A DNA stretch of 64,000 bases, taken from NCBI GenBank assembly GCA_024408855.1, contig JAKSUQ010000008.1, positions 3,072-67,071 on the forward strand, given 5' to 3'. Shown piece after piece: positions 4,806-50,662 of the stretch (positions within the stretch are counted from its first letter, which is position 1; every line of letters starts with the position of its first letter). The notes below the pieces were generated by a model. That model ran no database searches, had not been told where the DNA came from, and saw only the letters and a list, made by a program, of their open reading frames with translations. This stretch comes from a bacterium (GTDB lineage Bacteria > Cyanobacteriota > Vampirovibrionia > Gastranaerophilales > Gastranaerophilaceae). Position numbers and translations under genes: made by a program.

Positions 4806-4824
4806 GTTTGCTAATTTCTTCTTT

Positions 4825-32246: not shown

Positions 32247-33200
32247 GTGGTTATTAATATAGAACAAGCCTCTGAATTATACCTTAATAACTATGCAAAA
32301 GTTTATTGCAAAAAATCAACTTGGAAAGGTTACGAGGGCTATTTGAAACATCACATATACGAATACTTAGGCGATTTAAAACTAATCGAAATGAGGCCAT
32401 TGCATGTACAAAATTTTATTAAAGATATGACTCAAACAGGTCTTGCTAATTCAACTATAAATCACTTAAAAAAGACTATTGGAGCTGTTTTTAATTTTAT
32501 GATTGATTCAGGTGTAATTTATCAAAATCCTGTTAATAGAATCAAATGTTTAAAAGTTAAAAATAATACTTTAATGCACCCACTAACAATTAAAGAAACC
32601 AACAAATTATTGAATGTTACTAAAAAGCATTACCCTGATTTTTATCCATTGCTATATATCGCAGTTAATACAGGCTTAAGACAGGGTGAATTGTTTGCTC
32701 TCACTTGGGATTGTGTTAATTTTGTTGAAAATTATATTGTTGTTAATAAAAGTTATACACATGGTGTCTTGGGCTCAACTAAAACAGGTGAAAACAGAAA
32801 CGTTAAAATATCTCTTATAGTTACAAAGTTTTTAAAAGAATGGAAAATGGCTTGTCCTAAAAGTGAGTTAAATCTTGTTTTTCCTAACGCAAACGGAAAT
32901 TATATGGACTCGCAAAATATGATGAAACGAAGATTTAAACCTGCTTTGGCTCTTGCCGGTATTGATAGTATAAGATTCCACGATTTAAGACATACTTATG
33001 CAAGCACACTTATTATTCAACAAGTGCCATTACCTTATATTTCAAAGCAATTAGGCCATTCAACAAACAAAGTTACACTTGATACTTATGTTCACTTAAT
33101 GCCGGAATCTGCTCAATTTGGTGATTCATTGCTTGAAAACTTGTATGAAGAAAAGGGCGCCGGACTAGAAGAATCAAATGTTAGAATGTTTGGCACATAA
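32247..33200 (+). pseudogene. N-terminally truncated tyrosine integrase (element B), paralog of 48531-49649
   Basis: Homology to the full integrase begins near ELYLNNYAK; about 63 N-terminal residues are missing; catalytic motifs TGLRQGE, FHDLRH, QLGHS, LDTY are intact. Confidence 0.8.
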
Positions 33201-33215
33201 ATATTTAGCCAATTA

Positions 33216-34355
33216 TCATTTGGAATTTTTATATATTAGTCCACAATTTTGTAACTCCAAAATCAAGTCTTTAACATCACTAATATCAGTTTTAGAGACG
33301 TCAAATGCAATTGCTAAAACATAGTTACTAGGTTTCTTAGAATCGAATTTATTAACATCAATGATACCAAAAGACAAGCCGTTTGTATAATCATATAAGT
33401 TAATACTATCTTTTTTGCATGAGAATTTGTCTTTATACTGTGTAAGTAGAGATGATATTTCAATATTACTTCTTAGGCTTGTATAATTATTATTGAAATA
33501 TAAATGTAACCACATATCATCTTTTCCAAAATCTGATACAGAAATTATTTCTTTTAATAATTCAAATGATTCAACAAAATTCAATGTTGACACTGTTATT
33601 GACATAAAATAATTATTAACACCAATGGTTTTGTCGTCTGGTTTTCGTTCATGTCCATGTATGTCAATTCTGATACCATTTACTAGGATTGTTTTTGAAA
33701 TCTCGCTCATTGAAAACCGAGGTTCATTAACAGAATAACTGATTTTCTTTGAATCTAAAAAATTCTTAATATCTGCGTAGTATTTTTCAATGTTGTATTT
33801 TTTTACCTCTCCAAAAATTTCATGTACTTCAGCATCGATTGTATAATTTGCGAAGGAAAACATATTATGAATATCAAAAACATTAGGTAACCCGAGCAAA
33901 TTTTTAATAAGGTCGTTATAATCTTCTTCAATAAAGCATTCTTCAAATTCTAAATTAAATTTGTCATTTATTGTTGAAATAAAGTTATTTAGACTGTCAT
34001 GAGAATTGATGTCAAATCCTTGGAGTAAATTTAATGGTGGTTTTAAATGTCCTATATTTATTCCTAGGCCAACAGGAATTACTTTGATTTTTTTTGCATA
34101 AGCGAAACCTGCTTCAAAATAAATCCAAGAAGAATTAATTGATGTAGGAGTAACAAAAACAAACATAATCTCCGCTTTGTCTAGTCCTTCTTCAATTTTA
34201 TGAACCCAATTTCTTCCTAAAGGAATACTTTGTCCATCACTTGACATAAATATATCAATAGATTTAGAAGTGATTTTTTCTATTTTATTCTTAATTGGGA
34301 TAATTACTTCTTTATCTTTACTTGAATGGCTAAAAAATATTGTAGGTTTACCCAT
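33216..34355 (-). CDS. TIR-domain protein (TIR_2-like) with an uncharacterised C-terminal domain
   Basis: MGKPTIFFSHSSKDKE, FMSSDG.SI..G..W, TPTSINSSWIYFEAG (catalytic Glu position), VIPVGL; SD AGGGAG before ATG 34355. Confidence 0.82.
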   Translation of the reverse strand: MGKPTIFFSHSSKDKEVIIPIKNKIEKITSKSIDIFMSSDGQSIPLGRNWVHKIEEGLDKAEIMFVFVTPTSINSSWIYFEAGFAYAKKIKVIPVGLGINIGHLKPPLNLLQGFDINSHDSLNNFISTINDKFNLEFEECFIEEDYNDLIKNLLGLPNVFDIHNMFSFANYTIDAEVHEIFGEVKKYNIEKYYADIKNFLDSKKISYSVNEPRFSMSEISKTILVNGIRIDIHGHERKPDDKTIGVNNYFMSITVSTLNFVESFELLKEIISVSDFGKDDMWLHLYFNNNYTSLRSNIEISSLLTQYKDKFSCKKDSINLYDYTNGLSFGIIDVNKFDSKKPSNYVLAIAFDVSKTDISDVKDLILELQNCGLIYKNSK

Positions 34356-34411
34356 TAACACATACTCCCTAGTTGGCATAACAATATTATTATAGTGCAT
34401 ATTAAAAAGAT

Positions 34412-34437
34412 TTTTGCAACTTTTTTGCAACTTTTTG
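34412..34437. repeat. 26-bp tandem TTGCAAC repeat, identical to 50435-50460
   Basis: TTTTGCAACTTTTTTGCAACTTTTTG at both loci; the first TTGCAAC is 77 bp from the att core in both. Confidence 0.85.
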
Positions 34438-34455
34438 AAAAAAAGGCACAAAAAA

Positions 34456-34497
34456 TACGCCTGCCGCGATTCGAACGCGGGACCCTCTGCTTAGAAG
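34456..34497 (-). other. att junction: 3' half of tRNA-Arg(UCU) starting at the anticodon loop
   Basis: Minus strand CTTCTAA GCAGA GGGTC CCGCG TTCGAAT CGCGG CAGGCGTA; identity with the tRNA starts exactly at CTTCTAA. Confidence 0.9.
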
Positions 34498-34847
34498 AAG
34501 CTGAAAGCCCATTTATCAGTAGTTTTCAGGGTTTATTAGAATTTATCACAATTGATTACAGTGCAAACATTTGAGGCTGATTTTATTCTCAATTTTAAGC
34601 ACAATTTGTTGGAGCTTATCAGAACTTTTGCAACCAATTTGCAACCTTCCCCCTTTATATATGTCCACTCAACGCCACTTTTAAGGGGCGGGGAGGGGAC
34701 AAAAACATAAAACAGCCCCTCTCAATCTGAGCCACAAAAAAATTCCGTAAATTTTGAAGAATTAAAAGTTTGCAAACCTTTGCTACAAAGTGGTGTACAT
34801 AGGATTCTTACTCGATATAATTCATTTATAAATTGAGAGGTTTAAAA

Positions 34848-35033
34848 ATGGAACGAAAAATTATACACAATAGAATCAAATGTAAAAATTGCGGGGATAT
34901 AATAGAATCAATAAGTACACACGATTTTAAATTTTGTTCTTGTGGTAAAGTTGCAATAGACGGAGGTAAATCATACCTAAAACGAACAGGTAATCCAAAC
35001 GATTGGGAAGAATTAAGCAAATTTGAAAACTAA
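34848..35033 (+). CDS. Small Zn-ribbon protein (resembles DUF7695-type phage/MGE proteins)
   Basis: NRIKCKNCGDIIES..HDFKFCSCGKVAIDGG..YLKR; SD GAGG. Confidence 0.7.
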   Translation: MERKIIHNRIKCKNCGDIIESISTHDFKFCSCGKVAIDGGKSYLKRTGNPNDWEELSKFEN

Positions 35034-35614
35034 TATATTTTTATAACATTACTTGCAAGATGAGGTTTTAAATTTTCAATAAAGTTGGGAACTCTTGCAG
35101 CAAACATTTCTATTAATTCTTCTTTTTCTATTGGTGGATTAATTAATGATTTTTGCATTTCAATAAATGAATCATATACTTTATCTTTTGATAGGTAAAA
35201 AAGATTAATTAAAAAATCGTCAGGCGATTGAGCTTCTATATTGTATTCAAACAAAACTTCATTTGGAAAATCTTTTATATTGTTAGTAACAATAACTTGT
35301 GCATTACTTGAAATTGCAGCAGCTAATACGTGTCTATCTTTTTCATTGATACGTGGTTCATCTATTTTGGGTAATGTGGAATAATCATCAATAATAGCTT
35401 CCGGAAATGCTCCATTAAGGACTTTAATAAGTTTATCCACTTTTTCAATGGCAATCCTTTGAGATAAGTTACGTCTTAATTCTTCGCAAATCACTTTACT
35501 CCAAACTGGTTGATACAATTCTTTTTCAGCTAATCTTAATAAAATATCTCTCAATAAGGCATCATATAAAATACAAGTATCAATAACTACGGTAAAATTT
35601 CCTAATTTAATCAT
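35030..35614 (-). CDS. PIN-domain (PIN_3/VapC-like) protein
   Basis: VVIDTCILY, WS..I.EEL, KDRHVLAAA, IVTNNIKDF acidic PIN motifs. Confidence 0.85.
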   Translation of the reverse strand: MIKLGNFTVVIDTCILYDALLRDILLRLAEKELYQPVWSKVICEELRRNLSQRIAIEKVDKLIKVLNGAFPEAIIDDYSTLPKIDEPRINEKDRHVLAAAISSNAQVIVTNNIKDFPNEVLFEYNIEAQSPDDFLINLFYLSKDKVYDSFIEMQKSLINPPIEKEELIEMFAARVPNFIENLKPHLASNVIKIY

Positions 35615-36056
35615 ATAGCCCCAATTCTTGAGATAATTTAGACATTTCCTCTATATTTGCACGTCTATTTTCTGCTCTTTTGTCTCGATACTCAATTAAA
35701 TCTTGCATTAAAACTTTTCTATGAGTACCTGTTTTTCTGAATTTAATTGTACCATTTTCTAATAATTTTATAAAATAAGGTCTTGATACATTTAAAATAT
35801 CAGCAGCCTGTTGTGTTGTTAATTCTTTGTCCATAGGAATTAATGTTACAGAATCCCCATTATTTAATGTTTTAACAACTTCTGTTAATGCAACATAAAT
35901 AATCGAAGGAACTTCTATTTCTTGTCCATTAACAACGAGAGCAATTTTGCCAACACCAGATAAATTGTCAACCAAATTTGAAAGTTCCTTTTTTTCATTA
36001 TCAGAACTTGGTGGTTGAAATATATAACTACTTGCAAGATTTTGTCTACTGATCAT
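35607..36056 (-). CDS. Excisionase-family HTH (HTH_17) protein, putative antitoxin/regulator of the PIN gene
   Basis: LTTQQAADILNVSRPYFIKLLENGTIKFRKTGTHRKV; 8-nt overlap with the PIN gene. Confidence 0.82.
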   Translation of the reverse strand: MISRQNLASSYIFQPPSSDNEKKELSNLVDNLSGVGKIALVVNGQEIEVPSIIYVALTEVVKTLNNGDSVTLIPMDKELTTQQAADILNVSRPYFIKLLENGTIKFRKTGTHRKVLMQDLIEYRDKRAENRRANIEEMSKLSQELGLYD

Positions 36057-36229
36057 AGTACCTCACTTTCATTTATATTATAACACATAAACGAAATAAA
36101 TGCAATATTCGAAATAAACGAAATAAACAAAAATTTACATTACTAACAATCGCAAACATTTTTTAGCTACTTGCTTATCCTAAGTTTCTTTCTCGATAAA
36201 ATTATTTTTATGCAATTTAAGGAGGAAGA

Positions 36230-36445
36230 ATGGTTGAAGTTAAGGATGAAGAACAAGAAGAAAAATTGCGAGAGGCTGGACACCTTTTATTAGAGATTAA
36301 GTGCTTGGCAAGATTAGGAGCATTAGCTTCAGACTCTTGTATTATTGATGATGAACTACAAATGCAAGATAATCTTGAATATTATTTTGCCTTACGACAA
36401 GTTGTAAAGTTAGTTATTCAAATCGAATATTTACTCTTTGATTAG
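36230..36445 (+). CDS. Hypothetical protein, 71 aa
   Basis: Strong SD AAGGAGG; acidic helical sequence. Confidence 0.55.
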   Translation: MVEVKDEEQEEKLREAGHLLLEIKCLARLGALASDSCIIDDELQMQDNLEYYFALRQVVKLVIQIEYLLFD

Positions 36446-36454
36446 AAATCTACC

Positions 36455-37576
36455 TTATGAATTAGTTGTAAAAGTTAATTCTTCTTGTGGTATTAGGATT
36501 CCACGTTTTGGATCGTGCTGATATGTAAACATTACTTTTTCCATAACCTCTTCTTCGCCAATAATATCATTAATTTTGTTCATCAATCTTTCTTGTGTTT
36601 CTTCATTATGATAATAAATATTTATTTTAGAATTCGAATTTATAAGAAGAATGTGTTTTAAAATATTTTCATCTGTATTATCAAGTGAATGTCCAATTAC
36701 GTGAAATACTGGCATCGATTTAGATTTTTTAATTCTTCGCAATAAATCTTGATATGGCTCTATGGTTCCATATTTATGTCTTTGGTTATGTTTTTTAAAT
36801 ACATTAAAATCCATAGGCATAGTATAGGGTGGTAATTTATCAAAGCTTTGTGTACCTAATATTAAATTACATTCATTATTATTGTTTTCAACTTTTCCAT
36901 GTACATAAACAGGTTTTATATTTATATCACAATATCCACTAAACTTTGCTTTATAAAATCTTTCACAAGTATCAGTATAATTAAAATTAAGAATATGTAC
37001 ATCCTTGCTACCTTCTGTTACGCCTATTGATTTCAATGAAAGTTTATATTTAGACTCAGACTCAATATGATTTAATACCTCATTTATCAAATAATTTTCA
37101 AATAATTTAGTAAATTCTCTTAATTGGTCATATAAAAAATTAACCACCCCTCTTGGCGTTTTAAAATATAATTTAAGTTGTATTTCGTTATAAGGATCGC
37201 ATTTTAAATATCCTTTTTCTGCTGAAGTAGAACCCATAGGTTCAATAAGATATTTTGTAAAATTATAAAAATTAAAAATCCCATCATCATAATTCATATT
37301 GAATATTCTCTGATAATTCGATGAATTTATTATAGGAAGTTGAGAGATATGTTGAATAACTTTGAATATTTCTTTTTCTAAGTCTATCCAAGTATCCCCC
37401 ATTTTTTGTTGAACATTTATAAAATGTCTTATCCATAAATTATTATAATATTTATCAGTAGGTTTATAAGTCGGGAATTTATGAAATTGATTACAGCAAT
37501 AATTTAAAAAATCACTATACTTGGTCTTTAATCCATGTGCTAAATCAAATCCATTACCTAAAATCAAAATATTCAT
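36455..37576 (-). CDS. AbiH family abortive-infection protein
   Basis: Signature MNILILGNGFDLAHGLKTKYSDF, LNFNYT, YVHG, GHSL..TD motifs. Confidence 0.85.
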   Translation of the reverse strand: MNILILGNGFDLAHGLKTKYSDFLNYCCNQFHKFPTYKPTDKYYNNLWIRHFINVQQKMGDTWIDLEKEIFKVIQHISQLPIINSSNYQRIFNMNYDDGIFNFYNFTKYLIEPMGSTSAEKGYLKCDPYNEIQLKLYFKTPRGVVNFLYDQLREFTKLFENYLINEVLNHIESESKYKLSLKSIGVTEGSKDVHILNFNYTDTCERFYKAKFSGYCDINIKPVYVHGKVENNNNECNLILGTQSFDKLPPYTMPMDFNVFKKHNQRHKYGTIEPYQDLLRRIKKSKSMPVFHVIGHSLDNTDENILKHILLINSNSKINIYYHNEETQERLMNKINDIIGEEEVMEKVMFTYQHDPKRGILIPQEELTFTTNS

Positions 37577-37580
37577 ATTA

Positions 37581-39359
37581 TTACCTTATATACGGCGTCT
37601 TAAAACCGAGATTTTTTAGACGGATGTTCATTGCCAGTGGATTTACATCAAAATGTTTTGCACATTCTTTTATAAATTTTTCGTCTAAAAATTCTTTGTC
37701 TGTCTTATTTTCATCTTGCACATACTGTAAAACATATTCTTCCGGCATGAGAATTTCAGCAGCTAAACTATCTGCTTCATATTCCATCAACTTTGAGCCA
37801 GATTCTTCGGATTTTCTGCCAAGTGTTCCATTTTTTAATTCTTTTTTGTGTTTCAGAATATGACCAATTTCGTGTGCAATAGTAAAGTTATCTCTCGGAT
37901 CTTTTACTGCAATCTCGTATAAGTCTTTTTCTTTGTTATACGAAACAGCACCTTTTTTTTGTTCATTATCTTTGTATACTAAAATCCCATTTTCTCTTGC
38001 AAATTGATCAATATTCATCTTGCCATGGGTTTGCCAAAACTCTAAAGATTTTTCAATAATTTTATCTTCAGATAAATCATCCTCATCAGAAACCATAACT
38101 GTGATTTGGCCATTCATAAGCATTGGTAGCAAAAAATCTCTTAAATTTGCAAGTGATAAATTTTCTTGCTTACACAAAATCATTTGTTTATAGATATCTT
38201 TAACTTTTTCAGTGTATTTATTTATTAGTTCTGTGGGCGGTATTACAATCTTGCTTTGTTCAAGATGGTCGGTTGTAATATGTCCCATCGTTGTTTTCCT
38301 AGCTTCTGCAATTCTTACAAAGTTATTGACATAAGCCGAAAGTTGCTGATAAACATATTCTTTTGTATACGACTCTTTAGGTACAACTTTAAATATATGT
38401 TGATTTAAACCGGCATCCACCCCTGTCCATAACATCACTTCTAGAGTAGCAGACCAAGAAAAGAGGATATCTCCAGCATAAATTTTATTTTTGTCAGGAA
38501 TATTTTTTCTTACAAACTCTGTTTCTTCTGTTATACCATTATGCATTTCTCCGATTTTAACAACAGGCATATATTCTTCATTTTCTTTTGGACGGTATTT
38601 TTGACAGGCTAAACCATTAAAAAAATCTGCAATTCTATACAAATTATCAATTTCCCAATCAATAGGTATTTCTTTTTTTAAAACTTCATTGTAAATCATC
38701 GTTCCGCCATTGGATTTATATGGCTTTCCATGAATATTAGGAAAATCAAATTGAACAAACCAATAATCATATATAGTTTTTGTAATATTTTCTAATATAC
38801 AATAGATGTTATTATTTGTATTTATTTTTTCATCTATTGTATATAAAATATTTGCAATATTTTTTTGAGTTGATATATCCGGATATTCAATTGATAAATC
38901 TTGTTGATCAAGGATTCCAATATAGGCTCTTGTAGATCCGCAGCCTGCATATTTTTTTATTCTTTTTTGGAACGTTGGAGAATCAAAATAATATTTTAAA
39001 TACACATTATTGAGGACATTTGGATCTTTTATCCGATAATATGTTACTTGTGGAGTAAGCATTATATAATCATCTTTTATATTGCTAACAATCGCAGTTC
39101 TTCCAATTGTTGCTTTATGAGTTAATAAAACATCTCCTTCTATCGCAAAGCCTTTTGGTAATGTTAAAGATTGTTCTTTGGTAATATATTTGCAAGTTTT
39201 ATAATTTATCAAACCATTATTAATATCAGAAGCCATAATAAACGGGATTCCCGATGTTACATAATCACTAGCTTTTGGGTGATATTCCCCATGATTACCA
39301 TCAATAGGTTGAAATAAAATATTCTCATCTATTAATTCAGAAATTGTTTTATTGTTCAT
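37581..39359 (-). CDS. hsdS: Type I RM specificity subunit fused to a C-terminal ImmA/IrrE-type metallopeptidase
   Basis: Two TRDs with central conserved region YDYWFVQFDFP...GKPYKSNGG...EIPIDW and the usual HsdS end LRDFLLPMLMNGQITV; then 171 extra aa with FTIAHEIGH and EYEADSLAAEILMP. Confidence 0.85.
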   Translation of the reverse strand: MNNKTISELIDENILFQPIDGNHGEYHPKASDYVTSGIPFIMASDINNGLINYKTCKYITKEQSLTLPKGFAIEGDVLLTHKATIGRTAIVSNIKDDYIMLTPQVTYYRIKDPNVLNNVYLKYYFDSPTFQKRIKKYAGCGSTRAYIGILDQQDLSIEYPDISTQKNIANILYTIDEKINTNNNIYCILENITKTIYDYWFVQFDFPNIHGKPYKSNGGTMIYNEVLKKEIPIDWEIDNLYRIADFFNGLACQKYRPKENEEYMPVVKIGEMHNGITEETEFVRKNIPDKNKIYAGDILFSWSATLEVMLWTGVDAGLNQHIFKVVPKESYTKEYVYQQLSAYVNNFVRIAEARKTTMGHITTDHLEQSKIVIPPTELINKYTEKVKDIYKQMILCKQENLSLANLRDFLLPMLMNGQITVMVSDEDDLSEDKIIEKSLEFWQTHGKMNIDQFARENGILVYKDNEQKKGAVSYNKEKDLYEIAVKDPRDNFTIAHEIGHILKHKKELKNGTLGRKSEESGSKLMEYEADSLAAEILMPEEYVLQYVQDENKTDKEFLDEKFIKECAKHFDVNPLAMNIRLKNLGFKTPYIR

Positions 39360-40995: not shown

Positions 40996-43900
40996 TATGC
41001 TACATCTCCATTATATTCTTTCATATATTCATCTACTATTAAATTATTAATAGATTCAGTTGTTTTGGTATCTATATTAATGTTTTTAGAATCAAACACC
41101 AGTGTTATGAATCGCATTATCATCCGTTTAAAAAAACCTTCATTTTTTACAACTGCACTATTATTCATGATATTTTCATCTGCTTGCTGTTTTATATCCT
41201 GCAAAGCTTCAGAAATTTTCATTTCCTCCTTTGGAGTTGAAGGGCTTCTTTTTTGCATTATGCGTTTATGCACTCTTGCATATTTTTTGTCATTATCATA
41301 TTTTGCAAGTAATAGATTATTTCTTCTATTTAAATCAACAACTCTATGATAAATATCTTCGATTAAACTTATATTTTGCTGCATTTCTTCTTGAGAAACT
41401 TCATATATATCACGTTTAGCAAAAATTCTTTCTAGTTCTTCTTTTAGGGAACACCACTCCGGATCTTTCTTATCAAAGTTGCTGTTAATAGCTTCTCTTG
41501 TTCTTGCAAGAGTATTTCTTAAATTATCTGCAATTTTAAGTTCTGCTTCACCTATCTTTGAAAATTTGAAAACAATATCTTCCATAGCAACATTTAAAAG
41601 CTCTGAGATATCGACATTATTTTCAATCTTTTCCATATAGTTAATATCTGCTATACGAAGCTCTACCATCTTTAAAAGGTCAGCATATTTTCTAAAATCA
41701 AGCCTTTGCAGTAATTCTTCATTGCCCTGGCATCGAATAATATTTTGTAATTCTTTTGCTAAAATTAATGCTTTTCTTAAACCTAAAAGAATTTTCTTAT
41801 CTTCAATTTCATTAATCTGTTGATTAAATATTTCTAAATTTCTTGTTTCGTAAGGATATAAAACTGTTTTTATTTCATCAATATCATTTTTAATATCTTC
41901 TTCTGATTTAAATATTTGAGAGAATTTTGCAACTTCATCGCCCAATTCATTCTGCAATTCATCCCAGTATGCTTTATTTACTTTATCAAATTCATCTCGG
42001 ATGTCCGTAAAATCAACAACATAGCCGTATCTGAATTCATTATATGGTCTATTAACTCTTGTCAGAGTTTGTAGTAAATTATGTTCTTTAATTTCTCTAT
42101 CCATATACAATTTTTTAAGACGAGGAGCATCAAAGCCTGTTAGGAGCATATTGTATACAAATAAAATATCGATTTTGCCATTTTTAAAATCATCTACGTA
42201 GCCTTTTCTGATTTCTTTGTCATCAATATCACATAAAATTAATGCAGCAGTTTTAATTGAGTTTTTATCAGTAGCTTTGTCTTTATAATGTTCCTCAAAA
42301 ATTTTAAAAAACATTTTTGCCTGTTCGGAACTACTACAGACAACCATTCCCCCAATTGTACTATCATTATATGCAATTCGCGATTTTCTCATATCCTCTG
42401 CAATATATTCAAGCATAGGTGTGACAAATTTTTCGTCAGCATAAACTTTCTTTTCTACAACATCGCCATGTTTAACAAGAATTGTATCTAAAACTTCTTT
42501 TAACTTTGCCTTGTATTGAGTTTCAATATCTTCACGAATTAGTTTTAATGTGTATCCATCAGCAATAGATGAATTGTAATAATACTGATGAATATAATCG
42601 CCCCATAATTCTTTTGAAGCAGCTCTATTCTTTCCTGCAAGTAACGGTGTTCCTGTCAAAGATATGAATATAGCATTTTTATCAAGGCTCATAAGATTTG
42701 CAAAATAAGAGCCTGTTGGTTTGTAGCTTCTATGGGCTTCATCAATAAAGTAAATCCTTTGAATATTAATACCATAATCACTTGGTTTAATGGTTGTATC
42801 CGGTGGAATTTTTTGAATGTTAATAACCGTTATTTCATCTTTTCCGATATCATTCTCAATAGCACCCTTTTTATTTTCAAATTCTTTTGCCAAGTCACTT
42901 TTTGAATTAACTGTATGAACTGTTAAACCACGACTTCTAAATTCTTTTTCTGCCTGCGCTTTTAAATCAAGTCTGTCTACTATAAAGTAGAACTTAGGAA
43001 TAACGCCTTTTTTGCTAAAATAATCTTTTAAAAGTTTGACATTATAATAAGCTAAAGCAGTTTTTCCTGAACCTTGGGTATGCCAAACTATGCCACGCTT
43101 AATATCTGAATCAAGTTTATTTTGAATCGCTTTTGATGCGAAGTACTGAGGATAACGCATTATGTGTTTTTCTATATGAATATTATCGTCATCGTCTTTT
43201 CTTTCAACATAAACCAAAGAATATTGTAAAAAATCTTTCAAGCGCTCTTTTGAAAACAAAGATAAAAGCATTCTATTTGTCGGTGTTGAGATTTGTTTAT
43301 TTGTTTTAAATTCTGCAGAGTGCTTAATTACAGTATTGTTTGTATCTTTTAGAATAAAGTTTTCATCATCTTCATTTAGCGGTTTTAGCTTTAAAGATAA
43401 TCTTTCAAGTTCTTCTGGTTTATCTCTAAAACAGTTGAAGAAAGCTTTTGAAGTAGATGTTGTTCCATAAAATGCACCATGTACCGGAGTAATAGATTCG
43501 TTATCATAGTCCATATTATTAGAAAACATCATAATTTGAGTTATGTTTATAAATTTCTTAAATTTTTTATTTGCAAAACGCATATTCATTCTGTTACGTT
43601 CTGCCATAATTCCTTCTCTGTTGTGGGGTTTTTTCACTTCAATAAAACATAAAGGCATACCATTGATTAATAATGTTATATCCGGTCTAAATTCTTCTTC
43701 ATCTTTCTTGCACTCTAATTCTGTTACAACATTAAAGCTATTTTTATCAAAGTTATCAAAATCTATTAACTTGATTCCTGATTGAGGGAGCAACATTTTT
43801 TCATAAAAACTTCTGCCTAAATCATCATTATCTAATTTCAGGTTTATGTCTTGTAATAATCGTTTTATATCATCATCTGACAAATTTTTGTCATGGTTGA

Positions 43901-44048
43901 TTCGCTTTATGCTATCTGAAAAAATATCCATAAAGATATTCATTTCAGTATCTATGTTGGCTTTTTTCAAAGATATATAGCTATAACCCAATCTTGTTAA
44001 TGTCAAAATTGCAGGTATTTTTACTCTTGTGTCTTCATTAAAAGCCAT
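40995..44048 (-). CDS. hsdR: Type I RM restriction subunit
   Basis: FRPDITLLINGMPLCFIEVKK nuclease motif, WHTQGSGKT, IDEAHRS, LTGTP, MLLTGFDAP, QTLTRVNR. Confidence 0.92.
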   Translation of the reverse strand: MAFNEDTRVKIPAILTLTRLGYSYISLKKANIDTEMNIFMDIFSDSIKRINHDKNLSDDDIKRLLQDINLKLDNDDLGRSFYEKMLLPQSGIKLIDFDNFDKNSFNVVTELECKKDEEEFRPDITLLINGMPLCFIEVKKPHNREGIMAERNRMNMRFANKKFKKFINITQIMMFSNNMDYDNESITPVHGAFYGTTSTSKAFFNCFRDKPEELERLSLKLKPLNEDDENFILKDTNNTVIKHSAEFKTNKQISTPTNRMLLSLFSKERLKDFLQYSLVYVERKDDDDNIHIEKHIMRYPQYFASKAIQNKLDSDIKRGIVWHTQGSGKTALAYYNVKLLKDYFSKKGVIPKFYFIVDRLDLKAQAEKEFRSRGLTVHTVNSKSDLAKEFENKKGAIENDIGKDEITVINIQKIPPDTTIKPSDYGINIQRIYFIDEAHRSYKPTGSYFANLMSLDKNAIFISLTGTPLLAGKNRAASKELWGDYIHQYYYNSSIADGYTLKLIREDIETQYKAKLKEVLDTILVKHGDVVEKKVYADEKFVTPMLEYIAEDMRKSRIAYNDSTIGGMVVCSSSEQAKMFFKIFEEHYKDKATDKNSIKTAALILCDIDDKEIRKGYVDDFKNGKIDILFVYNMLLTGFDAPRLKKLYMDREIKEHNLLQTLTRVNRPYNEFRYGYVVDFTDIRDEFDKVNKAYWDELQNELGDEVAKFSQIFKSEEDIKNDIDEIKTVLYPYETRNLEIFNQQINEIEDKKILLGLRKALILAKELQNIIRCQGNEELLQRLDFRKYADLLKMVELRIADINYMEKIENNVDISELLNVAMEDIVFKFSKIGEAELKIADNLRNTLARTREAINSNFDKKDPEWCSLKEELERIFAKRDIYEVSQEEMQQNISLIEDIYHRVVDLNRRNNLLLAKYDNDKKYARVHKRIMQKRSPSTPKEEMKISEALQDIKQQADENIMNNSAVVKNEGFFKRMIMRFITLVFDSKNINIDTKTTESINNLIVDEYMKEYNGDVA

Positions 44049-44564
44049 TCTTTAATCACTCCTATTACTATTTTAGTATAGCATGAACAAAACTATCACT
44101 AATTTGTGTAATTCAATGTTTGCATATATAAGTCTGGGCGCCAATGACTCCAAGAATCAACTAGTTATACGCTTATATTTACAAGCGTCGATAAATTTAA
44201 ATGCGTTATTTCTTTGTTTAATTTATCAGTATTATATCAATTTGTTAATTTAACTAATTTTTTATGATTATTTGGTCTAAATTCACTGCTAACCTTTCCC
44301 CGTTTAGTAACGGTGCCCCTGATAAATAATAATCTTATATATAACTAAGTACAAAGACCATATATCTATATTTTCAATATGTTTATTAACCCAATTTTTC
44401 TAGATATGAATATAGACAAGGTTATAAAATTTAATTTTTTTAATATTGATATGAATGTTTTAATTTTTTTTAAAAAATAAATATAAAGACAATTTGTCTC
44501 ATTTCTAACTATAAAACATGTAGTATGATAGTTAAACAATCTTAAAAAAGAAAGGATAAATAAT

Positions 44565-44975
44565 ATGTTTGAATCACCATACCTATTAAAGTTTGAACCT
44601 CAAAAACTTGATGTTGAAGATGTAATGTGGTTGCATGCCGATCCTTTATGGATTTATGAGCATGCTTTATATTTTGATATCAAATTTGGGAAAAAATTTC
44701 TTAGTTACAAAAATGTAAAAATACCTTTAACTCCAAGGCTTTTTAAAGCAGCTCTTGAAATGGCGTCTGAACCATACAAGCCACATAAATTTTCGAACTA
44801 TAACAATGATAATGGGGCTGCACCTGATTCTGATAAAAAAATTGTAAGTAGAATAAATAAAACCTTCAAAAAAGTTGGTTTTAATGAAATATTATTTAAA
44901 AAAGAAAGAGGTGTGGAAGGTTACCAAATAGATTTAAAGGTTATTCCAAAACATTTAATTGTAATTTGTGAATAA
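44565..44975 (+). CDS. Putative winged-helix (OmpR/PhoB C-terminal-like) regulator
   Basis: IPLTPRLFKAALEM and DKKIVSRINKTF...ERGVEGYQID resemble Trans_reg_C; no receiver domain; SD AAGGA. Confidence 0.5.
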   Translation: MFESPYLLKFEPQKLDVEDVMWLHADPLWIYEHALYFDIKFGKKFLSYKNVKIPLTPRLFKAALEMASEPYKPHKFSNYNNDNGAAPDSDKKIVSRINKTFKKVGFNEILFKKERGVEGYQIDLKVIPKHLIVICE

Positions 44976-45084
44976 TATGTTGTCACCAAACTGTCACGAT
45001 TTTGTATATCGCAGTATTAGAGCTTATTTGTTCTAATTAAGATTATAAAAAGTCGTTTAGAAAAAACGAAGAAAGGATAAAATC

Positions 45085-45471
45085 ATGGCAGAATTTAAAA
45101 ATGTAATGACAACAGAAAATTTGGTTGATTTTTTAGACCAAAAACCAAGAGTAGATAAGGACAATGGAAATATATATTTCAGTTGCCCTTATTGCAGAGA
45201 AGAAGCTTTAGAAAAATTAAAGAATGTGCTTCGAAAAAAAGACTTTGAGAATGTTGCAAATTTAGATTTGGAATTTGGAACATTAATTTTCAATCCTGAA
45301 ACCCATGACATTGCATGTAGCTCAAGACCTAATAGTCATTATGATGATGAACATGCAATTGAAATTGAAGCAGAAATGGTAAAGTGGCATTTGCCTAGTA
45401 TGGATTATGGGGAATATTTAGATGCAAAATTTAATAACATCTTTATTACAAATAAATGCCAAAGCCAATAA
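45085..45471 (+). CDS. Hypothetical protein with a CxxC motif (possible Zn-binding)
   Basis: FSCPYCRE...IACSSRPNSH; SD AAGGA. Confidence 0.55.
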   Translation: MAEFKNVMTTENLVDFLDQKPRVDKDNGNIYFSCPYCREEALEKLKNVLRKKDFENVANLDLEFGTLIFNPETHDIACSSRPNSHYDDEHAIEIEAEMVKWHLPSMDYGEYLDAKFNNIFITNKCQSQ

Positions 45472-45486
45472 TACTTACTAGTTATC

Positions 45487-45603
45487 GGTTAATACGGTTA
45501 ATAAAGTTATTAAATTTTTTATAAAAAAATAAAAATAAAATATATAGCGATAGAAAATAATAAAAATAAAAAACTTTTAAAATTTTTATTAACCGTATTA
45601 ACC
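45487..45603. repeat. 19-bp perfect inverted repeat flanking a 79-bp AT-rich spacer (candidate element origin)
   Basis: GGTTAATACGGTTAATAAA (45487-45505) and TTTATTAACCGTATTAACC (45585-45603). Confidence 0.85.
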
Positions 45604-45642
45604 TCTTTTATTGTTGATACATAGCTAAAAGGAGATAATTTA

Positions 45643-48219
45643 ATGAAAAAATATAAAAAACTTCTCTTGGCGTTAAGTGCAGCTTCGAAAGTAATTACCA
45701 AACCGGAGGACGCCGAGACAATTAAAACAATTAAGAATATTACAAAAGACCACTTTAACAAATTAAGTGTACAACACTTATTAGGGAAAACAAGATTAGG
45801 TGTTACCCCTGAAATTTTAGGGCAAGAAGATAAAGTTATGTTTGGTGGTATAGATATTGACTGTCAAGACATATCACATGAAGAAAAATATAACATAGCT
45901 TTGGATTTACAAGACAAATTATTTGAAGATTACAGACTTAAAGCAGTTATTGAAACTTCAAAGTCAAAAGGTTTTCACGTTTGGATGCCTTTTGGGATTC
46001 CGCAAGAAAGAATTTTTATAAAAAATATATTACAAGATGTTATCAGCACTGCAACAGACAAAAAAATTGCAAATGGTGAAATTGAAGTTTTTCCAAAGGG
46101 GGATAAAGGCAATGCCATATTCCTACCATTCTATGGAATGTTTAAAGATGAAAACACAATTGACGTGAATTATTACGCACAAATGAAGAATGTTTTTGTT
46201 GAAGGTAAGAATATGGAGGCTATTCAAAATCCTTTAGAAGCAATTCATCAAGCAATGCGACAAAATGATTCAATGTTGCCTATACTCAAAGAATTTAGCA
46301 TATACCCAAAATGTATAAGAAAAGCCCTTTTTGTTTGGAAGAAAGGCGACCGTCACTATTTGTCTATGGCAATAGCTGCTATTTTAAAAAAAGTTTGTAA
46401 GGCATCAGAAGCTGAGGCAATAAGTTTAATAAAATCCATTGCACAATTTAATTGTGATGAAGAAATTAACGACAGAATCAGTGCTGTAAAAAGCACATAT
46501 AGAAGTGAAGAAATTGCAGGTTGTTCAATTATGCAGGGCAAAAATGAAAACATTGCAATAACGAATGTGCTATGTTCTGAAAACTGCGATTTGATAGAAA
46601 AGTCATATACTGTTAAAGATAAAGTGAGAAAATTGCAAGCTAATAATAAAGGCTTAGTGTTAAAAGAAAAAGTTGCAGAATTAATAAAATCTATTATTGA
46701 TGAATCTGGCAAAATGTTTAGGTCAAATTGCAAATTTTACCTTTTTTTGAAAGATGAAAAACAACTAATTGCCTTAACGGAAGATTCAAGAGAATTTAAA
46801 AATCTTTTAACAAAGTGGGGTATTAATGCTTCTGAAACACTATTCAAATACGTTAAAGAAGAATTATATGTTCATTGCGCAGAGCATGCTACAGATGTAA
46901 ATATACATAAATTTGCGTATTTTAATAGTGAAAATTATGCACTATACATATACAATGCTTCAAATTCAATATTAAAGGTAACAGAAAACTCTGTAACCAC
47001 AATAGAAAATGGTGATGAGGGTGTCTTGTTCGAAGAATTGAATGACTATACACCTTTTAAACTTGTTGATTTTGATAAAGGAAAAAACTACCTTTCGGAA
47101 TATCTTATTAAAAATCTGAATCTAGAGTCTGACGAGTACAACATAGATGTATTCAAACTTGTTGAAATATGGTTTTACAGTTTATTCTTTGAATCAATAA
47201 TGCCTACAAAACCAATATTTGTACTTATTGGGGAAAAAGGAAGCGGGAAAACATCATTTTTAAGACGCTCAGGTCAAATCTTAATGGGTGAAAAATTCAA
47301 TGTAACTTCTATAACTTCAGACTATAAAAATCTTATAACACTTATCACAAACAACTATTTTGTTGTTATAGATAACTTGGATTCACCTACAACGCAAATA
47401 AATGATACACTGGCAAGAATATCAACAGGACAAGTAATAAAAATACGCGATTATTACACTACAAATCAGCAAGTTGATTTTGAAGCAAAATGTTTTGTTG
47501 CTCTTACATCAAGAAAACCTCATTTTACCAGAGATGATGTATCTGACAGGTTAATATGTGTTTTCTTAAAAAGATTTGAATCCTTTGAGAGCGAAAACAA
47601 ACTTAAAGCTAATACATCAAAAAAGCGTGATGAAATAATGAGCTATATTATTTCACAAGTGCAAATTATTATTAGTAACTTAAAAAAGAATAAAGGCAAA
47701 ATTTTTAAGACTTCCTTTCGTATGGCTGATTTTGCTGAATTTGCATTTAAAATGGCATCAAGTGAAAAAGAAATTAAACAACTTGAAGATATGTTTTCTT
47801 CACTATCAAGGCAACAAAAAGATTTTGCAATAAGAGATGATATTGTTTACATAATTTTAAAGGAAATTGTAGGAGAAAAATGGAATCAAGGTACAAAATT
47901 TTCAACTACTTCATTACTTGAAAAATTCCGTAATAAAGCTGAGGAACTAGGACTTGAAAGAATTTTTAATAGTTTATATATTAATCCTAAATCTCTTACA
48001 AGTCATTTGATGAACATTAAAGATAATATTTCAAATGAAATTATTATTGACCGACAAAAAGCCCATGGAAATGCATATGTTTATTCATTCTATCTTGTTG
48101 ATGAAACGAAACCAATATCACAGGCGCAAGCTATTGAAATGTTAATGAATAAGAGTATTGAAGAATTAACTGATGCATATGACAAATATATGAATAAAGA
48201 AGGGGGTAAAGATGAATAA
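45643..48219 (+). CDS. Archaeo-eukaryotic primase (AEP) fused to a PriCT-like domain and a P-loop helicase
   Basis: GGIDID (motif I), SKSKGFHVW (motif II), EVFPK...GNAIFLP; KGDRHYLSM PriCT-like; GEKGSGKTS Walker A and VVIDN Walker B. Confidence 0.8.
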   Translation: MKKYKKLLLALSAASKVITKPEDAETIKTIKNITKDHFNKLSVQHLLGKTRLGVTPEILGQEDKVMFGGIDIDCQDISHEEKYNIALDLQDKLFEDYRLKAVIETSKSKGFHVWMPFGIPQERIFIKNILQDVISTATDKKIANGEIEVFPKGDKGNAIFLPFYGMFKDENTIDVNYYAQMKNVFVEGKNMEAIQNPLEAIHQAMRQNDSMLPILKEFSIYPKCIRKALFVWKKGDRHYLSMAIAAILKKVCKASEAEAISLIKSIAQFNCDEEINDRISAVKSTYRSEEIAGCSIMQGKNENIAITNVLCSENCDLIEKSYTVKDKVRKLQANNKGLVLKEKVAELIKSIIDESGKMFRSNCKFYLFLKDEKQLIALTEDSREFKNLLTKWGINASETLFKYVKEELYVHCAEHATDVNIHKFAYFNSENYALYIYNASNSILKVTENSVTTIENGDEGVLFEELNDYTPFKLVDFDKGKNYLSEYLIKNLNLESDEYNIDVFKLVEIWFYSLFFESIMPTKPIFVLIGEKGSGKTSFLRRSGQILMGEKFNVTSITSDYKNLITLITNNYFVVIDNLDSPTTQINDTLARISTGQVIKIRDYYTTNQQVDFEAKCFVALTSRKPHFTRDDVSDRLICVFLKRFESFESENKLKANTSKKRDEIMSYIISQVQIIISNLKKNKGKIFKTSFRMADFAEFAFKMASSEKEIKQLEDMFSSLSRQQKDFAIRDDIVYIILKEIVGEKWNQGTKFSTTSLLEKFRNKAEELGLERIFNSLYINPKSLTSHLMNIKDNISNEIIIDRQKAHGNAYVYSFYLVDETKPISQAQAIEMLMNKSIEELTDAYDKYMNKEGGKDE

Positions 48220-48391
48220 TGCTCTCTTTAATATCCAAGAAACGGCTAGTTACCTACGTATTTCTACAAGTACGCTTTATCGTTGGGTACATCAAAAGAA
48301 GATAAAATTTGTCAAAATCGGTTCAAGAGTTCTATTTGCGCAGGAAACACTTGAAGAATTTATTAAAAGTAAAACAGTAAACACGGAATGA
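48212..48391 (+). CDS. Excisionase (HTH_17), 59 aa
   Basis: Translated by hand: MNNALFNIQETASYLRISTSTLYRWVHQKKIKFVKIGSRVLFAQETLEEFIKSKTVNTE; overlaps the primase stop; directly upstream of int. Confidence 0.85.
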   Translation: MNNALFNIQETASYLRISTSTLYRWVHQKKIKFVKIGSRVLFAQETLEEFIKSKTVNTE

Positions 48392-48405
48392 AGCTAATAA
48401 CCAGA

Positions 48406-48445
48406 AGCACTGTCGGCACCGTGCCGGCACCGTGCTCGCGGTGCT
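48406..48445. repeat. GC-rich palindromic/tandem repeat between xis and int
   Basis: CGGCACCGTGC twice; palindrome CGGCAC-C-GTGCCG; hairpin GCACCG-6 nt-CGGTGC. Confidence 0.7.
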
Positions 48446-48530
48446 ACTCAAAATTTTCATTTGCAAAAGTTTGCAAATGGGCTTACAAAAGCTCAATAAC
48501 ACGTTAAATTAAATATAGGAGACATTAAAA

Positions 48531-49649
48531 ATGCCAGCAGTAAGAAAAAATAAACAGAAAAACAAATGGGAATTTGATTACAAAGACTTAAGAGGAAATC
48601 GCAAAACAAAAGGCGGTTTTCTTACCAAAGTTGAAGCAGAAAAAGCCCAAGCAAAGATGATTGATGAACTTAATAAAGGTTTGTTTATTGCAAATGACAA
48701 GCTGACTTTTAGAGAAGCTGCTGAATTATACCTTAATAACTATGCAAAAGTTTATTGCAAAAAATCAACTTGGAAAGGTTACGAGGGCTATTTGAAACAT
48801 CACATATACGAATACTTAGGCGATTTAAAACTAATCGAAATGAGGCCATTGCATGTACAAAATTTTATTAAAGATATGACTCAAACAGGTCTTGCTAATT
48901 CAACTATAAATCACTTAAAAAAGACTATTGGAGCTGTTTTTAATTTTATGATTGATTCAGGTGTAATTTATCAAAATCCTGTTAATAGAATCAAATGTTT
49001 AAAAGTTAAAAATAATACCTTAATGCACCCACTAACAATAAAAGAGACAAATAAGTTATTAACCGTTACTAAAAAACATTATCCTGATTTTTATCCATTG
49101 CTTTATATTGCAGTTAATACAGGTTTAAGAGAGGGTGAATTATTTGCTCTCACTTGGGATTGTGTTAATTTTGTTGAAAATTATATTGTTGTAAATAAAA
49201 GTTATACCCATGGTGTCTTGGGCTCAACAAAAACAGGCAAAGACAGGAAAGTTAAAATATCTAACTCAGTTACAAAATTTTTAAAAGAATGGAAAATGGC
49301 TTGCCCTAAAAGTGAATTAAATCTCGTTTTCCCTAATGCAAACGGGAATTATATGGATTCACAAAATATGATGAAAAGAAGATTTAAACCTGCTTTAGCT
49401 CTTGCAGGCATTGATAGTATAAGATTTCACGATTTAAGGCATACATACGCAAGCACACTTATTATTCAACAAGTGCCAATCCCTTATATTTCAAAACAAT
49501 TAGGACACTCAACAAACAAAGTTACTCTTGATACGTACATTCATTTAATGCCTGAATCTGCTCAATTTGGTGATTCATTGCTTGAAAACTTATATGAAAT
49601 AAGGGACGCAGAACTAGAAGAATCAAATGTTAAAAGGTTTGGTACATAA
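48531..49649 (+). CDS. Tyrosine integrase with N-terminal arm-binding domain
   Basis: N-terminal KWEFDYKDLRGNRKTKGGFLTK; catalytic TGLREGE, FHDLRH, QLGHS, LDTY; SD AGGAG. Confidence 0.93.
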   Translation: MPAVRKNKQKNKWEFDYKDLRGNRKTKGGFLTKVEAEKAQAKMIDELNKGLFIANDKLTFREAAELYLNNYAKVYCKKSTWKGYEGYLKHHIYEYLGDLKLIEMRPLHVQNFIKDMTQTGLANSTINHLKKTIGAVFNFMIDSGVIYQNPVNRIKCLKVKNNTLMHPLTIKETNKLLTVTKKHYPDFYPLLYIAVNTGLREGELFALTWDCVNFVENYIVVNKSYTHGVLGSTKTGKDRKVKISNSVTKFLKEWKMACPKSELNLVFPNANGNYMDSQNMMKRRFKPALALAGIDSIRFHDLRHTYASTLIIQQVPIPYISKQLGHSTNKVTLDTYIHLMPESAQFGDSLLENLYEIRDAELEESNVKRFGT

Positions 49650-50381
49650 TTAATCGTGGTATTGAACAGGATTTGCTGAACCTTTTTTTGAATATTTTTC
49701 AGGTATTCGTTTATTAACAAAATAATCTCTGATTTCATTTGGAGCAACTTTACCTTCAAATGCGTAACGTATTCCGTCATCAGACAAATACCAATTATCT
49801 ACTTCATAAACTTCTTTAACAATACCGCCAATAACTCCAAGTACATACTTAATCTTATCTACTCTATTTTTGCTAACTTTCCAATGATACCTAACAGCGT
49901 CATATAAATTACCATTGCAATCATTATAAACTCTGTCATAGGTTGTTTTAATTATCATATATTTAATATCATCTGGCTCTTTATACATTCCTAAAGAATA
50001 CATTTGCTGAAGTGTTTCGGCATTACTTGCCCCATATTCATTATTATGACCTGATTGTAAATTTGTTAGTCCGGGAAAGCAATCAATTAAAGCTGCTTCA
50101 ACCTCAAATGCTTCTGATTCGGTTAGCCCATGTCTTTGAATAACATGAATAACTTCTAAGCCTGCATTTTTAATTTCATATATTTGCTTATATTTTGTAG
50201 ATGTTTCATCATCAGCACTATTTTCTAAATCAAACTCTTTTAAAGCACATTCAACGTGTGCAAAGACTCTATTACCTTTTCCTTTGCCAACATAAAATGT
50301 TTGTCCATTTCTGGGGTCAATTAATCTATAAACATAATATCCAAGTTTTTCACATACTTCAGGACTAAAACACTTTATCAT
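49650..50381 (-). CDS. GIY-YIG (LEM-3-like) nuclease
   Basis: GYYVYRLIDPRNGQTFYVGKG.GNRVFAH, EVEAALID, LTN motifs; ATG 50381 preferred. Confidence 0.78.
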   Translation of the reverse strand: MIKCFSPEVCEKLGYYVYRLIDPRNGQTFYVGKGKGNRVFAHVECALKEFDLENSADDETSTKYKQIYEIKNAGLEVIHVIQRHGLTESEAFEVEAALIDCFPGLTNLQSGHNNEYGASNAETLQQMYSLGMYKEPDDIKYMIIKTTYDRVYNDCNGNLYDAVRYHWKVSKNRVDKIKYVLGVIGGIVKEVYEVDNWYLSDDGIRYAFEGKVAPNEIRDYFVNKRIPEKYSKKGSANPVQYHD

Positions 50382-50434
50382 ATATAAACCCCCAACAATA
50401 CCCTTATTAGGAGATTTTAAAATAACAAAATTAA

Positions 50435-50460
50435 TTTTGCAACTTTTTTGCAACTTTTTG
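50435..50460. repeat. 26-bp tandem TTGCAAC repeat (copy 2)
   Basis: Identical to 34412-34437. Confidence 0.85.
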
Positions 50461-50478
50461 GGTTTTGGCATGAAAAAA

Positions 50479-50552
50479 TACGCCCGGCGCGATTCGAACG
50501 CGCGACCCTCTGCTTAGAAGGCAGATGCTCTATCCAGCTGAGCTACGGACGC
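50479..50552 (-). tRNA. trnR: tRNA-Arg(UCU), no encoded CCA, 3' half probably supplied by element A
   Basis: GCGTCCG TA GCTC AGCTGGATA GAGC A TCTGC CTTCTAA GCAGA GGGTC GCGCG TTCGAAT CGCGC CGGGCGT A folds as a 74-nt cloverleaf. Confidence 0.93.
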
Positions 50553-50595
50553 ATAAGTTATGTTTATTTAATTGTCAAATTTTTGTTTTTTCTGT

Positions 50596-50650: not shown

Positions 50651-50662
50651 ATCACATCTTCT

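Follow-up and report, generated by a model that had tools for sequence, protein, structure and literature searches.

Small tRNA-integrating elements of Candidatus Gastranaerophilaceae carry a compact, variable slot rich in defense-type genes between the integrase gene and its probable arm sites

Small integrative elements built on an integrase, an AlpA/Xis-like helix-turn-helix (HTH) protein and a primase-helicase-like protein are common in Candidatus Gastranaerophilaceae. One of them, together with the stump of a second, lies in the stretch of DNA analyzed here, a 64-kb window (GenBank assembly GCA_024408855.1, contig JAKSUQ010000008.1, positions 3,072 to 67,071) whose own numbering is used throughout. 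To the left of the island are the chromosomal genes for DnaE, SmpB and LptF/G, which end at 31887. There follow, in order, a 5'-truncated integrase gene (int B), a gene for a TIR-domain protein, a 26-bp double repeat of TTGCAAC, a copy of the 3' part of a tRNA-Arg gene, and the element that we call A, which spans approximately 34498-50520 and is an intact 16 kb. The target of integration is the intact tRNA-Arg(TCT) gene at 50478-50553 on the minus strand (ARAGORN; Rfam tRNA, 66.9 bits), the 3' 43-48 nt of which are supplied by element A. The copy of its 3' part that forms the att core at the junction of B and A (34450-34497, minus strand) is a 48-nt direct repeat of 50473-50520, 94% identical, and ends in the anticodon loop. 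The window is a tandem array at one tRNA-Arg(TCT) gene, composed of element A and what remains of an older sibling, B.

The original prediction for this DNA had read the locus as two elements, A and B. This is accurate for A, whose integrase (48531-49649, plus strand) is a 372-aa tyrosine recombinase with the Pfam domains Phage_integrase, Phage_int_SAM_3 and Arm-DNA-bind_4. "Element B" (32266-34497), on the other hand, is a right-hand remnant comprising a truncated integrase gene, a cargo gene and an att site, because the homology of int B to int A (48715-49649) and to all relatives begins only at 32266, the equivalent of codon 62 of int A. What is left of int B (32266-33200, plus strand) encodes Pfam Phage_integrase without Arm-DNA-bind_4; the arm-binding N-terminus of approximately 61 aa is gone, as is everything upstream. 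The remnant is 94% identical over its length to the metagenome locus L138, in which the integrase is intact and the same TIR gene (98% aa identity) stands beside it.

The interval of interest lies between the TAA stop codon of each integrase gene (33198-33200 in B, 49647-49649 in A) and the attachment site, and had been predicted to be a precisely bounded slot for variable cargo. When 33100-34520 is aligned with 49549-50560, the two sequences are near-identical through the stop codons and at random level beyond them; the longest exact run that they have in common before the tRNA is the 26-bp double repeat, TTTTGCAACTTTTTTGCAACTTTTTG, in the right arm of B (34412-34437, plus strand) and of A (50435-50460, plus strand), the last copy in A lying 30 nt from the tRNA end. 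Alignment and exact-match run thus agree that homology stops at the integrase stop codon and resumes at the repeat. Each interval holds a single gene on the minus strand, convergent with the integrase gene, and the two are unrelated, belonging to different Pfam and PADLOC families. The cargo of A (49650-50381), the stop of which directly abuts that of int A, encodes a GIY-YIG protein that matches the PADLOC PD-T4-3 profile (PDLC04031) with an E of 1.6e-72, over residues 2-242 of 243 and profile positions 3-253 of 256, and Pfam LEM-3_GIY-YIG with 62.9 bits; a full-length profile match combined with a GIY-YIG nuclease domain identifies it as a PD-T4-3 homolog. The cargo of B (33216-34355) encodes a 379-aa protein with a Pfam TIR_2 domain (49.4 bits against a cut-off of 28; E 7.7e-13), the C-terminal ~260 aa of which match nothing in Pfam or NCBIfam. 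We considered this protein as a Thoeris ThsB, but its PADLOC matches to ThsB/TIR profiles are weak (ThsB, E 6e-8) and the slot has no second gene that could supply the ThsA effector (SIR2/SLOG or Macro) of a Thoeris locus.

To place these two slots in the context of their family, we tabulated the genes between integrase and tRNA in Gastranaerophilaceae genomes and metagenomes, counting as the slot whatever separates the integrase stop from the first convergent tRNA gene or tRNA 3' fragment that follows, with longer flanks fetched before slots were defined. Of 401 genomes sampled from the class, 50 have a homolog of int A, as do 72 of 401 from the family. A metagenome scan contributed 15 further loci more than 90% identical to int A, and an integrase-alignment scan of genome contigs gave, among the matches listed, mostly integrases of other phyla at 25-35% identity, with L034-L039 proving useful. 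The resulting 68 bounded slots lie beside tRNA-Arg(TCT) at 30 loci, tRNA-Met(CAT) at 27, tRNA-Ala(TGC) at three and tRNA fragments at six, and at all 68 the integrase gene is transcribed toward the att site and tRNA. Forty slots contain a single gene, which is convergent with the integrase gene, and hence co-directional with the tRNA, in 36 (binomial p 1.9e-7, uncorrected for relatedness). The notion of a single-gene hotspot therefore describes 40 of the 46 occupied slots, but six hold two or three genes (up to 3.45 kb, among them a set combining a cyclic oligonucleotide-based antiphage signaling system, CBASS, with ApeA, and a type II restriction-modification (RM) system), and 22 of the 68 are empty, mostly 234-390 nt in length. 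In a quick tree of the integrases, tRNA target groups by clade while cargo does not. Our literature searches found no published description of this element family.

Conserved sequence marks the tRNA-proximal end of the slot. The arrangement TTGCAACN4TTGCAAC occurs three times in the 64-kb window against 0.01 expected, including a pair in the left arm of element A (34628-34645, plus strand), and TTGC[AG]AC (TTGCRAC) is present no more than 120 nt before the tRNA at 48 of 68 loci, with two copies in 27, versus 1 of 68 control segments. Its distance from the tRNA is fixed within a lineage, at 30 nt for Arg-targeting and 67-68 nt for Met-targeting elements. Because the integrase carries an Arm-DNA-bind_4 domain, pairs occur at both ends of A and the spacing to the tRNA is constant, these repeats are most likely arm-type integrase sites, and the cargo would therefore lie inside the mobile unit.

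The empty spacer of the int A clade reveals what the cargo replaces: an integrase terminator hairpin (CCTGTCAAGAAATTGACAGG followed by a T run), a conserved block of ~100 nt, an A-rich stretch and the TTGCRAC repeat. Rfam finds only tRNAs there and no further RNA element. Cargo has replaced the whole spacer in A, B/L138, L134 and L145, whereas the hairpin alone is kept in L005, L192 and L142, the block alone in L006, and both in L143. Across the family, the edges of the slot are accordingly not one fixed nucleotide, and both take alternative positions: the left at the integrase stop or the end of the ~50-nt hairpin, and the right just before the TTGCAAC repeat or ~100 nt earlier. In five further independent pairs with flanks 88-99% identical (L127/L128, L163/L166, L134/L138, L134/L135 and L030/L126), homology ends within -10 to +7 nt of the integrase stop and resumes 47-110 nt before the tRNA. 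Cargo open reading frames (ORFs) are intact and lie close against the integrase stop (-24 to +54 nt).

Sharp breaks in homology a few nucleotides from the integrase stop in many pairs, cargos that are mostly single genes in one orientation, and conserved TTGCRAC sites at the right edge are what might be expected of an integron-like system, in which the integrase or another recombinase moves cassettes at defined sites beside the integrase stop and the arm. We nonetheless regard such a site-specific cassette mechanism as very improbable. Integron cassettes would be bordered at both ends by attC-like sites and would enter at a single, constant point. Here, insertion points vary on both sides and junctions vary by cargo, and all four combinations of keeping or losing the hairpin and the ~100-nt block occur; on the integrase side we saw neither a common repeat nor an attC-like element, although no formal attC or covariance search was run; and the slot contains no second recombinase. 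The left edge at the stop codon would be expected in any event, since selection for a functional integrase would tolerate no break any further upstream. Because the junctions are not a single fixed site, recombination is the more likely means by which the slot acquires its content.

What the slot carries was examined by searching cargo proteins against Pfam, PADLOC and NCBIfam as concatenations of three to four proteins, with matches mapped back by coordinates, such that a second match to the same family inside one concatenate could be hidden. The 61 slot ORFs fall into 46 blastp clusters, one of them artefactual. At a PADLOC threshold of E<=1e-9, 19 of 55 cargo proteins match a defense family versus none of 29 controls (Fisher p 1.8e-4, to be read as indicative); the controls, size-matched chromosomal ORFs of the window that were put through identical searches, gave only two weak, partial PADLOC matches. 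Fourteen more of the 55 cargo proteins have defense-type domains. Among the known or candidate defense proteins are an Old-type ATPase-TOPRIM protein, bSEFIR (E 1e-101), PD-T7-4, PD-T4-3, a PDC-S20 KAP NTPase, a PDC-S66 TIR protein, and several ThsB-type TIR proteins, two of which are paired with a TPR-S/MAP3K_TRAF_bd protein. Others are a CBASS cyclase with NucC, followed by an ApeA-type HEPN protein (ApeA/PDC-S58), two C5 methylases with an MTaX1-HNH endonuclease, a SoFic-like Fic protein and a DUF4365 restriction-type nuclease, while the defense-type domains include DUF3800, HNH_5, DUF2971, an NDT/TIR-like protein and a Polbeta nucleotidyltransferase. Similar genes come first past the integrase at loci where no tRNA was reached: bSEFIR, PDC-S06 (AAA_13), PDC-S02, NsnA/GmrSD-HNH, and GajB with Mrr. 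Neither of the outcomes named beforehand as speaking against a defense hotspot, namely relatives with only the two genes of the window or with mostly non-defense genes, was observed: there are approximately 46 cargo families, and no recognizable housekeeping or metabolic gene among them. The hotspot interpretation therefore stands insofar as the slot is hypervariable and defense-rich, and needs qualifying in that approximately 40% of cargo proteins have no recognizable domain, for which a role in defense is presumed.

One unannotated family illustrates what such proteins may be. A 465-aa cargo protein, encoded at 4734-6128 (minus strand) of L145 and also found in L116 and L167, belongs to a family that forms 13 clusters among 5.8 billion proteins, none of them named; genes neighboring its distant homologs encode HEPN_LA2681, DUF4238, Mrr, RM proteins and a serine recombinase. 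In a confident structural model (predicted local distance difference test score, pLDDT, 80), the N-terminal part is rich in beta structure and the C-terminal domain, which contains an invariant R406-x4-H411, is helical; three of 12 members weakly match Pfam HEPN_Apea (best E 2.7e-4). Comparison with folds in the PDB gave nothing significant (best E 0.04), nor did an hhalign comparison with the ApeA of L143. This family most likely represents a remote ApeA-like HEPN protein, and at least some unannotated cargo would therefore be defense-like. NCBIfam searches of 27 unannotated cargo proteins gave a single match, LPO_1073/Vpar_1526, for L117.

Some recurrent arrangements among the cargos are worth recording. 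The commonest unannotated cargo is a family of 176-194 aa, its members 25-60% identical, with a weak match to PADLOC PDC-S35 (E 2.6e-5); it occurs in the bounded slots of L025, L128 and L192 and in L131, L168 and L169, where no tRNA was reached. At three loci, the gene for this family is separated from the integrase gene by a conserved 113-aa ORF, the product of which is predicted to have a membrane helix at its C-terminus. The slots of L127 and L182 share a pair in which a MAP3K_TRAF_bd + TPR-S protein of ~458 aa (38% aa identity between the two loci) is encoded beside a small ThsB-type TIR protein; possibly, the two genes form a TIR system in which the TPR protein is the sensor.

The nature of the effectors also bears on whom the cargo serves. 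Many are potentially toxic (TIR, HEPN, Fic and nuclease proteins, besides a PIN protein elsewhere in element A), and the backbone of integrase, AlpA-like HTH and primase-helicase-like protein resembles that of minimal satellites, such as the "Type C PICI" of PMC10085698, where PICI denotes phage-inducible chromosomal island. It is thus conceivable that the cargo mainly benefits the element, either as addiction or stabilization toxins or by interference against a helper phage as in satellites. That this is its principal role strikes us as unlikely. Several cargos are homologous to broad anti-phage systems (PD-T4-3, bSEFIR, Old, CBASS and RM), single-gene slots lack an antitoxin partner, and no packaging or capsid-remodeling gene was found in element A; in any case, host and element roles are not mutually exclusive.

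Cargo turns over quickly relative to the backbone. The 18 loci with integrases at least 90% identical to int A exhibit, besides the empty state, ten occupied states: PD-T4-3, the TIR protein, a nucleotidyltransferase, the family of ~190 aa, unannotated proteins of 180 aa and 199 aa, an RM trio, CBASS + ApeA, the 465-aa HEPN-like protein and PDC-S02. L127 (genome G320) and L128 (G393), both from species representatives, encode identical integrase proteins and are 98.7% identical in nucleotide sequence through the integrase gene, but differ in their slots. The L127 slot encodes ThsB, a TPR-S/MAP3K_TRAF_bd protein and a second ThsB; that of L128 has the ~190-aa family gene with small ORFs. Another tRNA-Met accompanied by TTGCAAC pairs follows 2.3 kb farther along L128, suggestive of a tandem array there too. 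L134 and L138, likewise with unrelated cargo, are 96.4% identical across 4.1 kb of backbone. Conversely, elements with different tRNA targets, and with only ~50% identity between their integrases, have related cargo at 63-87% aa identity: 87% for L145 (Arg) and L116 (Met), 65% for L134 and L188, and 63% for L019 and L170.

Tandem accretion and decay are plainly visible in the window, where B is a remnant, and one could argue that slots hold no more than neutral debris of decayed tandem neighbors, brought beside the integrase gene by deletion rather than maintained by selection; slot genes do share the orientation of the downstream neighbor's distal cargo, and one third of slots are empty. However, cargo always lies inside the element's own arm sites and core, which a deletion across the att junction would remove, and the ORFs are intact and packed tightly against the integrase stop. 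Strong enrichment for complete defense genes, and the identical junctions and intact cargo shared by B and L138, are also difficult to reconcile with decay. We consider the debris explanation very unlikely.

On balance, we think it probable that the DNA between the integrase gene and the P' arm serves this family as a compact accessory slot, either empty (~270 nt) or occupied, usually, by one stand-alone anti-phage gene, and that the window presents a tandem array of such elements. The limits of the slot, its varied content, the excess of defense families and the turnover on near-identical backbones are shown by the data above; what follows is interpretation. New genes would first enter the spacer by illegitimate recombination, as suggested by junctions that differ from case to case. 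Homologous recombination in the flanks, which are conserved (integrase gene and backbone on one side, arm and tRNA on the other), could then exchange cargo among elements. Expressed in the integrated state, the cargo would protect the host, and hence the element, from phages.

Several points weigh against this interpretation. The anti-phage activity of the cargo is argued from homology and neighborhood, and 22 of 55 cargo proteins have no match in Pfam, PADLOC or NCBIfam. The loci are related and not phylogenetically independent, for which reason p-values are indicative only. ORFs were called mechanically, and some starts over-extended into the arm, giving rise to one false cluster (cluster 1; L012, L036 and L176), the common peptide of which, KSCKKV, is the translated TTGCAAC repeat. 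Ten genomes of the same genus that lack the integrase (L198-L217) did not yield an unoccupied attB by synteny; in these, neither LptF/G nor the DUF2400/TPR genes adjoin a tRNA-Arg, and nothing in the window matches the DNA that follows LptF/G there. Nor does the arm recommend itself as a promoter for the cargo: a promoter-like match, TTGCAA-17-TAAAAT, is present in the arm of A and absent from that of B, and such matches are no commoner than in shuffled sequence. The idea of a promoter embedded in the arm arises because TTGCAA is palindromic and resembles a -35 box. It belongs to a more ambitious proposal, in which the slot, immediately downstream of the tRNA gene and in its direction, would be an integration-dependent expression site, read through from the tRNA or driven by an arm promoter and gated by integrase bound to TTGCRAC, such that the state of the element would switch single-gene immunity; a separate one holds that the approximately 20 unannotated cargo families would mostly prove to be anti-phage systems of a new, single-gene kind. 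We offer both as long shots.

The slot is not the sole site of defense-type genes in these elements, and must be seen as one side of a larger accessory region. In element A, the distal (attL-side) cargo occupies 35030-44048 (minus strand; Pfam and PADLOC, the latter with AbiH and Specificity_I) and encodes a PIN protein with HTH_17, AbiH and a type I RM system composed of HsdS, HsdM and HsdR; a DUF7695 gene lies between the left TTGCAAC pair and the PIN and HTH_17 genes. HsdS (37581-39359) carries a fused M78 peptidase domain of IrrE/ImmA type (Pfam Methylase_S + Peptidase_M78), and AbiH lies directly downstream of the type I RM operon. Three relatives also carry defense genes distally: a C5-methylase RM module in G620; a single large KAP NTPase of 1314 aa, PifA/QatA-like, in G386 (L196, 1036-4980, attL side), the integrase of which is 91% identical to int A; and a methylase with AbiH in G261. 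In the predicted circular form, slot and distal cargo sit on either side of attP, and we therefore infer that they constitute one accessory region flanking attP that is split by integration.

Between the two cargo regions of element A, the backbone (44565-48391, plus strand; Pfam) comprises two small ORFs (44565-44975 and 45085-45471) without a Pfam match, an 858-aa VapE-like/primase-helicase-like protein, and an HTH_17 protein of AlpA/Xis type. It is partly kept in relatives, in which Xis is 51-75% identical and the replication protein 35% identical or without a match, such that replication proteins are barely related in elements whose integrases are 90-92% identical. A weak tmRNA-like Rfam match at 45447-45502, upstream of the primase-helicase gene, reaches 17.4 bits against a gathering score of 47 (E 0.0017) and, being far under threshold, is probably due to chance.

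The array itself has left further traces of its history. Over 300 nt, int A (48715-49014) and int B (32266-32565) are identical at 298 positions, compared with 87-95% over the remainder, in a tract that ends exactly at the truncation point of B; this looks like recent gene conversion or recombination between tandem siblings. Outside element A, 48 nt past the intact tRNA-Arg, lies a 51-nt pseudo-copy of the 5' half of the tRNA gene (50602-50652, minus strand; a 96% repeat of 50504-50554). The same 5'-half pseudo-tRNA follows the tRNA in the unrelated contigs L134, L138, L143 and L007 (Rfam, 33.8 bits in L007), and the copy in the window is probably an old integration or excision relic. The flanks of the island (LptF/G on the left, TPR and DUF2400 on the right) are 7 kb apart in one of the integrase-free L198-L217 genomes and unlinked in most of the others, where they are on different contigs or, in G332, ~87 kb apart, so that the gene neighborhood of the island is not preserved across the genus.

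How does the slot compare with known systems? Conserved flanks around unrelated content, together with enrichment for defense genes, characterize the hotspots borne by mobile genetic elements (PMC9122126), and both are found here. A close parallel, also drawn in the original prediction, is the hotspot between psu and int of P4-like satellites, alongside those of P2-like phages (Rousset et al. 2022, PMC9122126; Moura de Sousa et al. 2026, PMC13586616). The likeness extends to a small integrative element with a conserved core, one locus by the integrase gene that holds differing known, candidate or unknown anti-phage systems, rapid swapping on near-identical cores, few pseudogenes, and more than a third of content unknown. 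The differences are that the host belongs to Melainabacteria rather than Enterobacteria; that the slot lies on the att side of the integrase gene, between its stop and the arm sites, instead of on the inner side next to cos; that it is much smaller, usually a single gene of 0.5-1.5 kb, with one orientation dominating; and that the targets are tRNA-Arg, tRNA-Met or tRNA-Ala.

Resemblance in hotspot behavior does not amount to membership. The P4-like set consists of the psu-delta-sid operon, alpA, epsilon, the alpha primase and cos (PMC10085698); Pfam searches of all larger ORFs of element A gave no Psu, Sid or Delta, and cos was also not detected, so that we do not class A as a P4-like satellite. 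PICIs are defined by int, alpA and pri-rep together with hijacking genes (terS, ppi/rpp or capsid morphogenesis), and "Type C PICI", with int, alpA and primase/replicase only, is treated as an unreliable set by the authors of SatelliteFinder (PMC10085698). Element A resembles Type C in backbone gene set, size, chromosomal integration and carriage of defense genes, but Pfam found no terS, ppi/rpp, capsid-morphogenesis or other hijacking gene in it, leaving three core functions and the two small ORFs. The backbone comprises only integrase, AlpA-like HTH and primase-helicase-like protein, which does not suffice to place the family among P4-like satellites or PICIs.

Two further comparisons are instructive. 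The tycheposons of Prochlorococcus are tRNA-integrating elements with a tyrosine recombinase (Hackl et al., bioRxiv 10.1101/2020.12.28.424599), and share with the present family a tRNA-targeting integrase that leaves partial tRNA repeats, small replication modules (primase/helicase and xis) with cargo, tandem arrays and decaying remnants in islands, and a host clade related to Cyanobacteria. Their integrase gene faces inward, whereas here it faces outward to the att site, with the slot in between, at 68 of 68 loci, and their cargo serves nutrient acquisition rather than defense. Temperate phages, for their part, carry accessory genes ("moron", lysogenic-conversion or b-region genes) beside attP, as in the b region of lambda and cargo at prophage ends. 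By analogy, the slot genes would also be non-essential, host-benefiting genes by the attachment site, expressed from the integrated element; but the element is not a phage, the locus spans no more than a few hundred bases, and nearly everything in it is defense-like. What sets the present family apart is that the slot lies between the integrase gene and the element's own arm sites, that it is small, and that its genes so strongly favor one orientation.

The slot is a further example of a known principle, the defense hotspot, in a family of elements without a published description that we could find. To our knowledge, no source has yielded more new anti-phage systems than the defense hotspots of satellites and prophages, which have been charted almost only in Proteobacteria and Firmicutes. 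For the poorly studied, uncultured Gastranaerophilaceae and Melainabacteria, a simple mining rule now suggests itself: to look at the DNA between the integrase stop and the TTGCRAC arm that precedes tRNA-Arg, tRNA-Met or tRNA-Ala. Most cargos consist of one gene of 0.5-1.5 kb, which makes synthesis and testing straightforward, and the approximately 20 unannotated families provide a candidate list. Since cargo is exchanged on identical backbones as quickly as has been reported for P4, such swapping may be a general behavior among small integrative elements.

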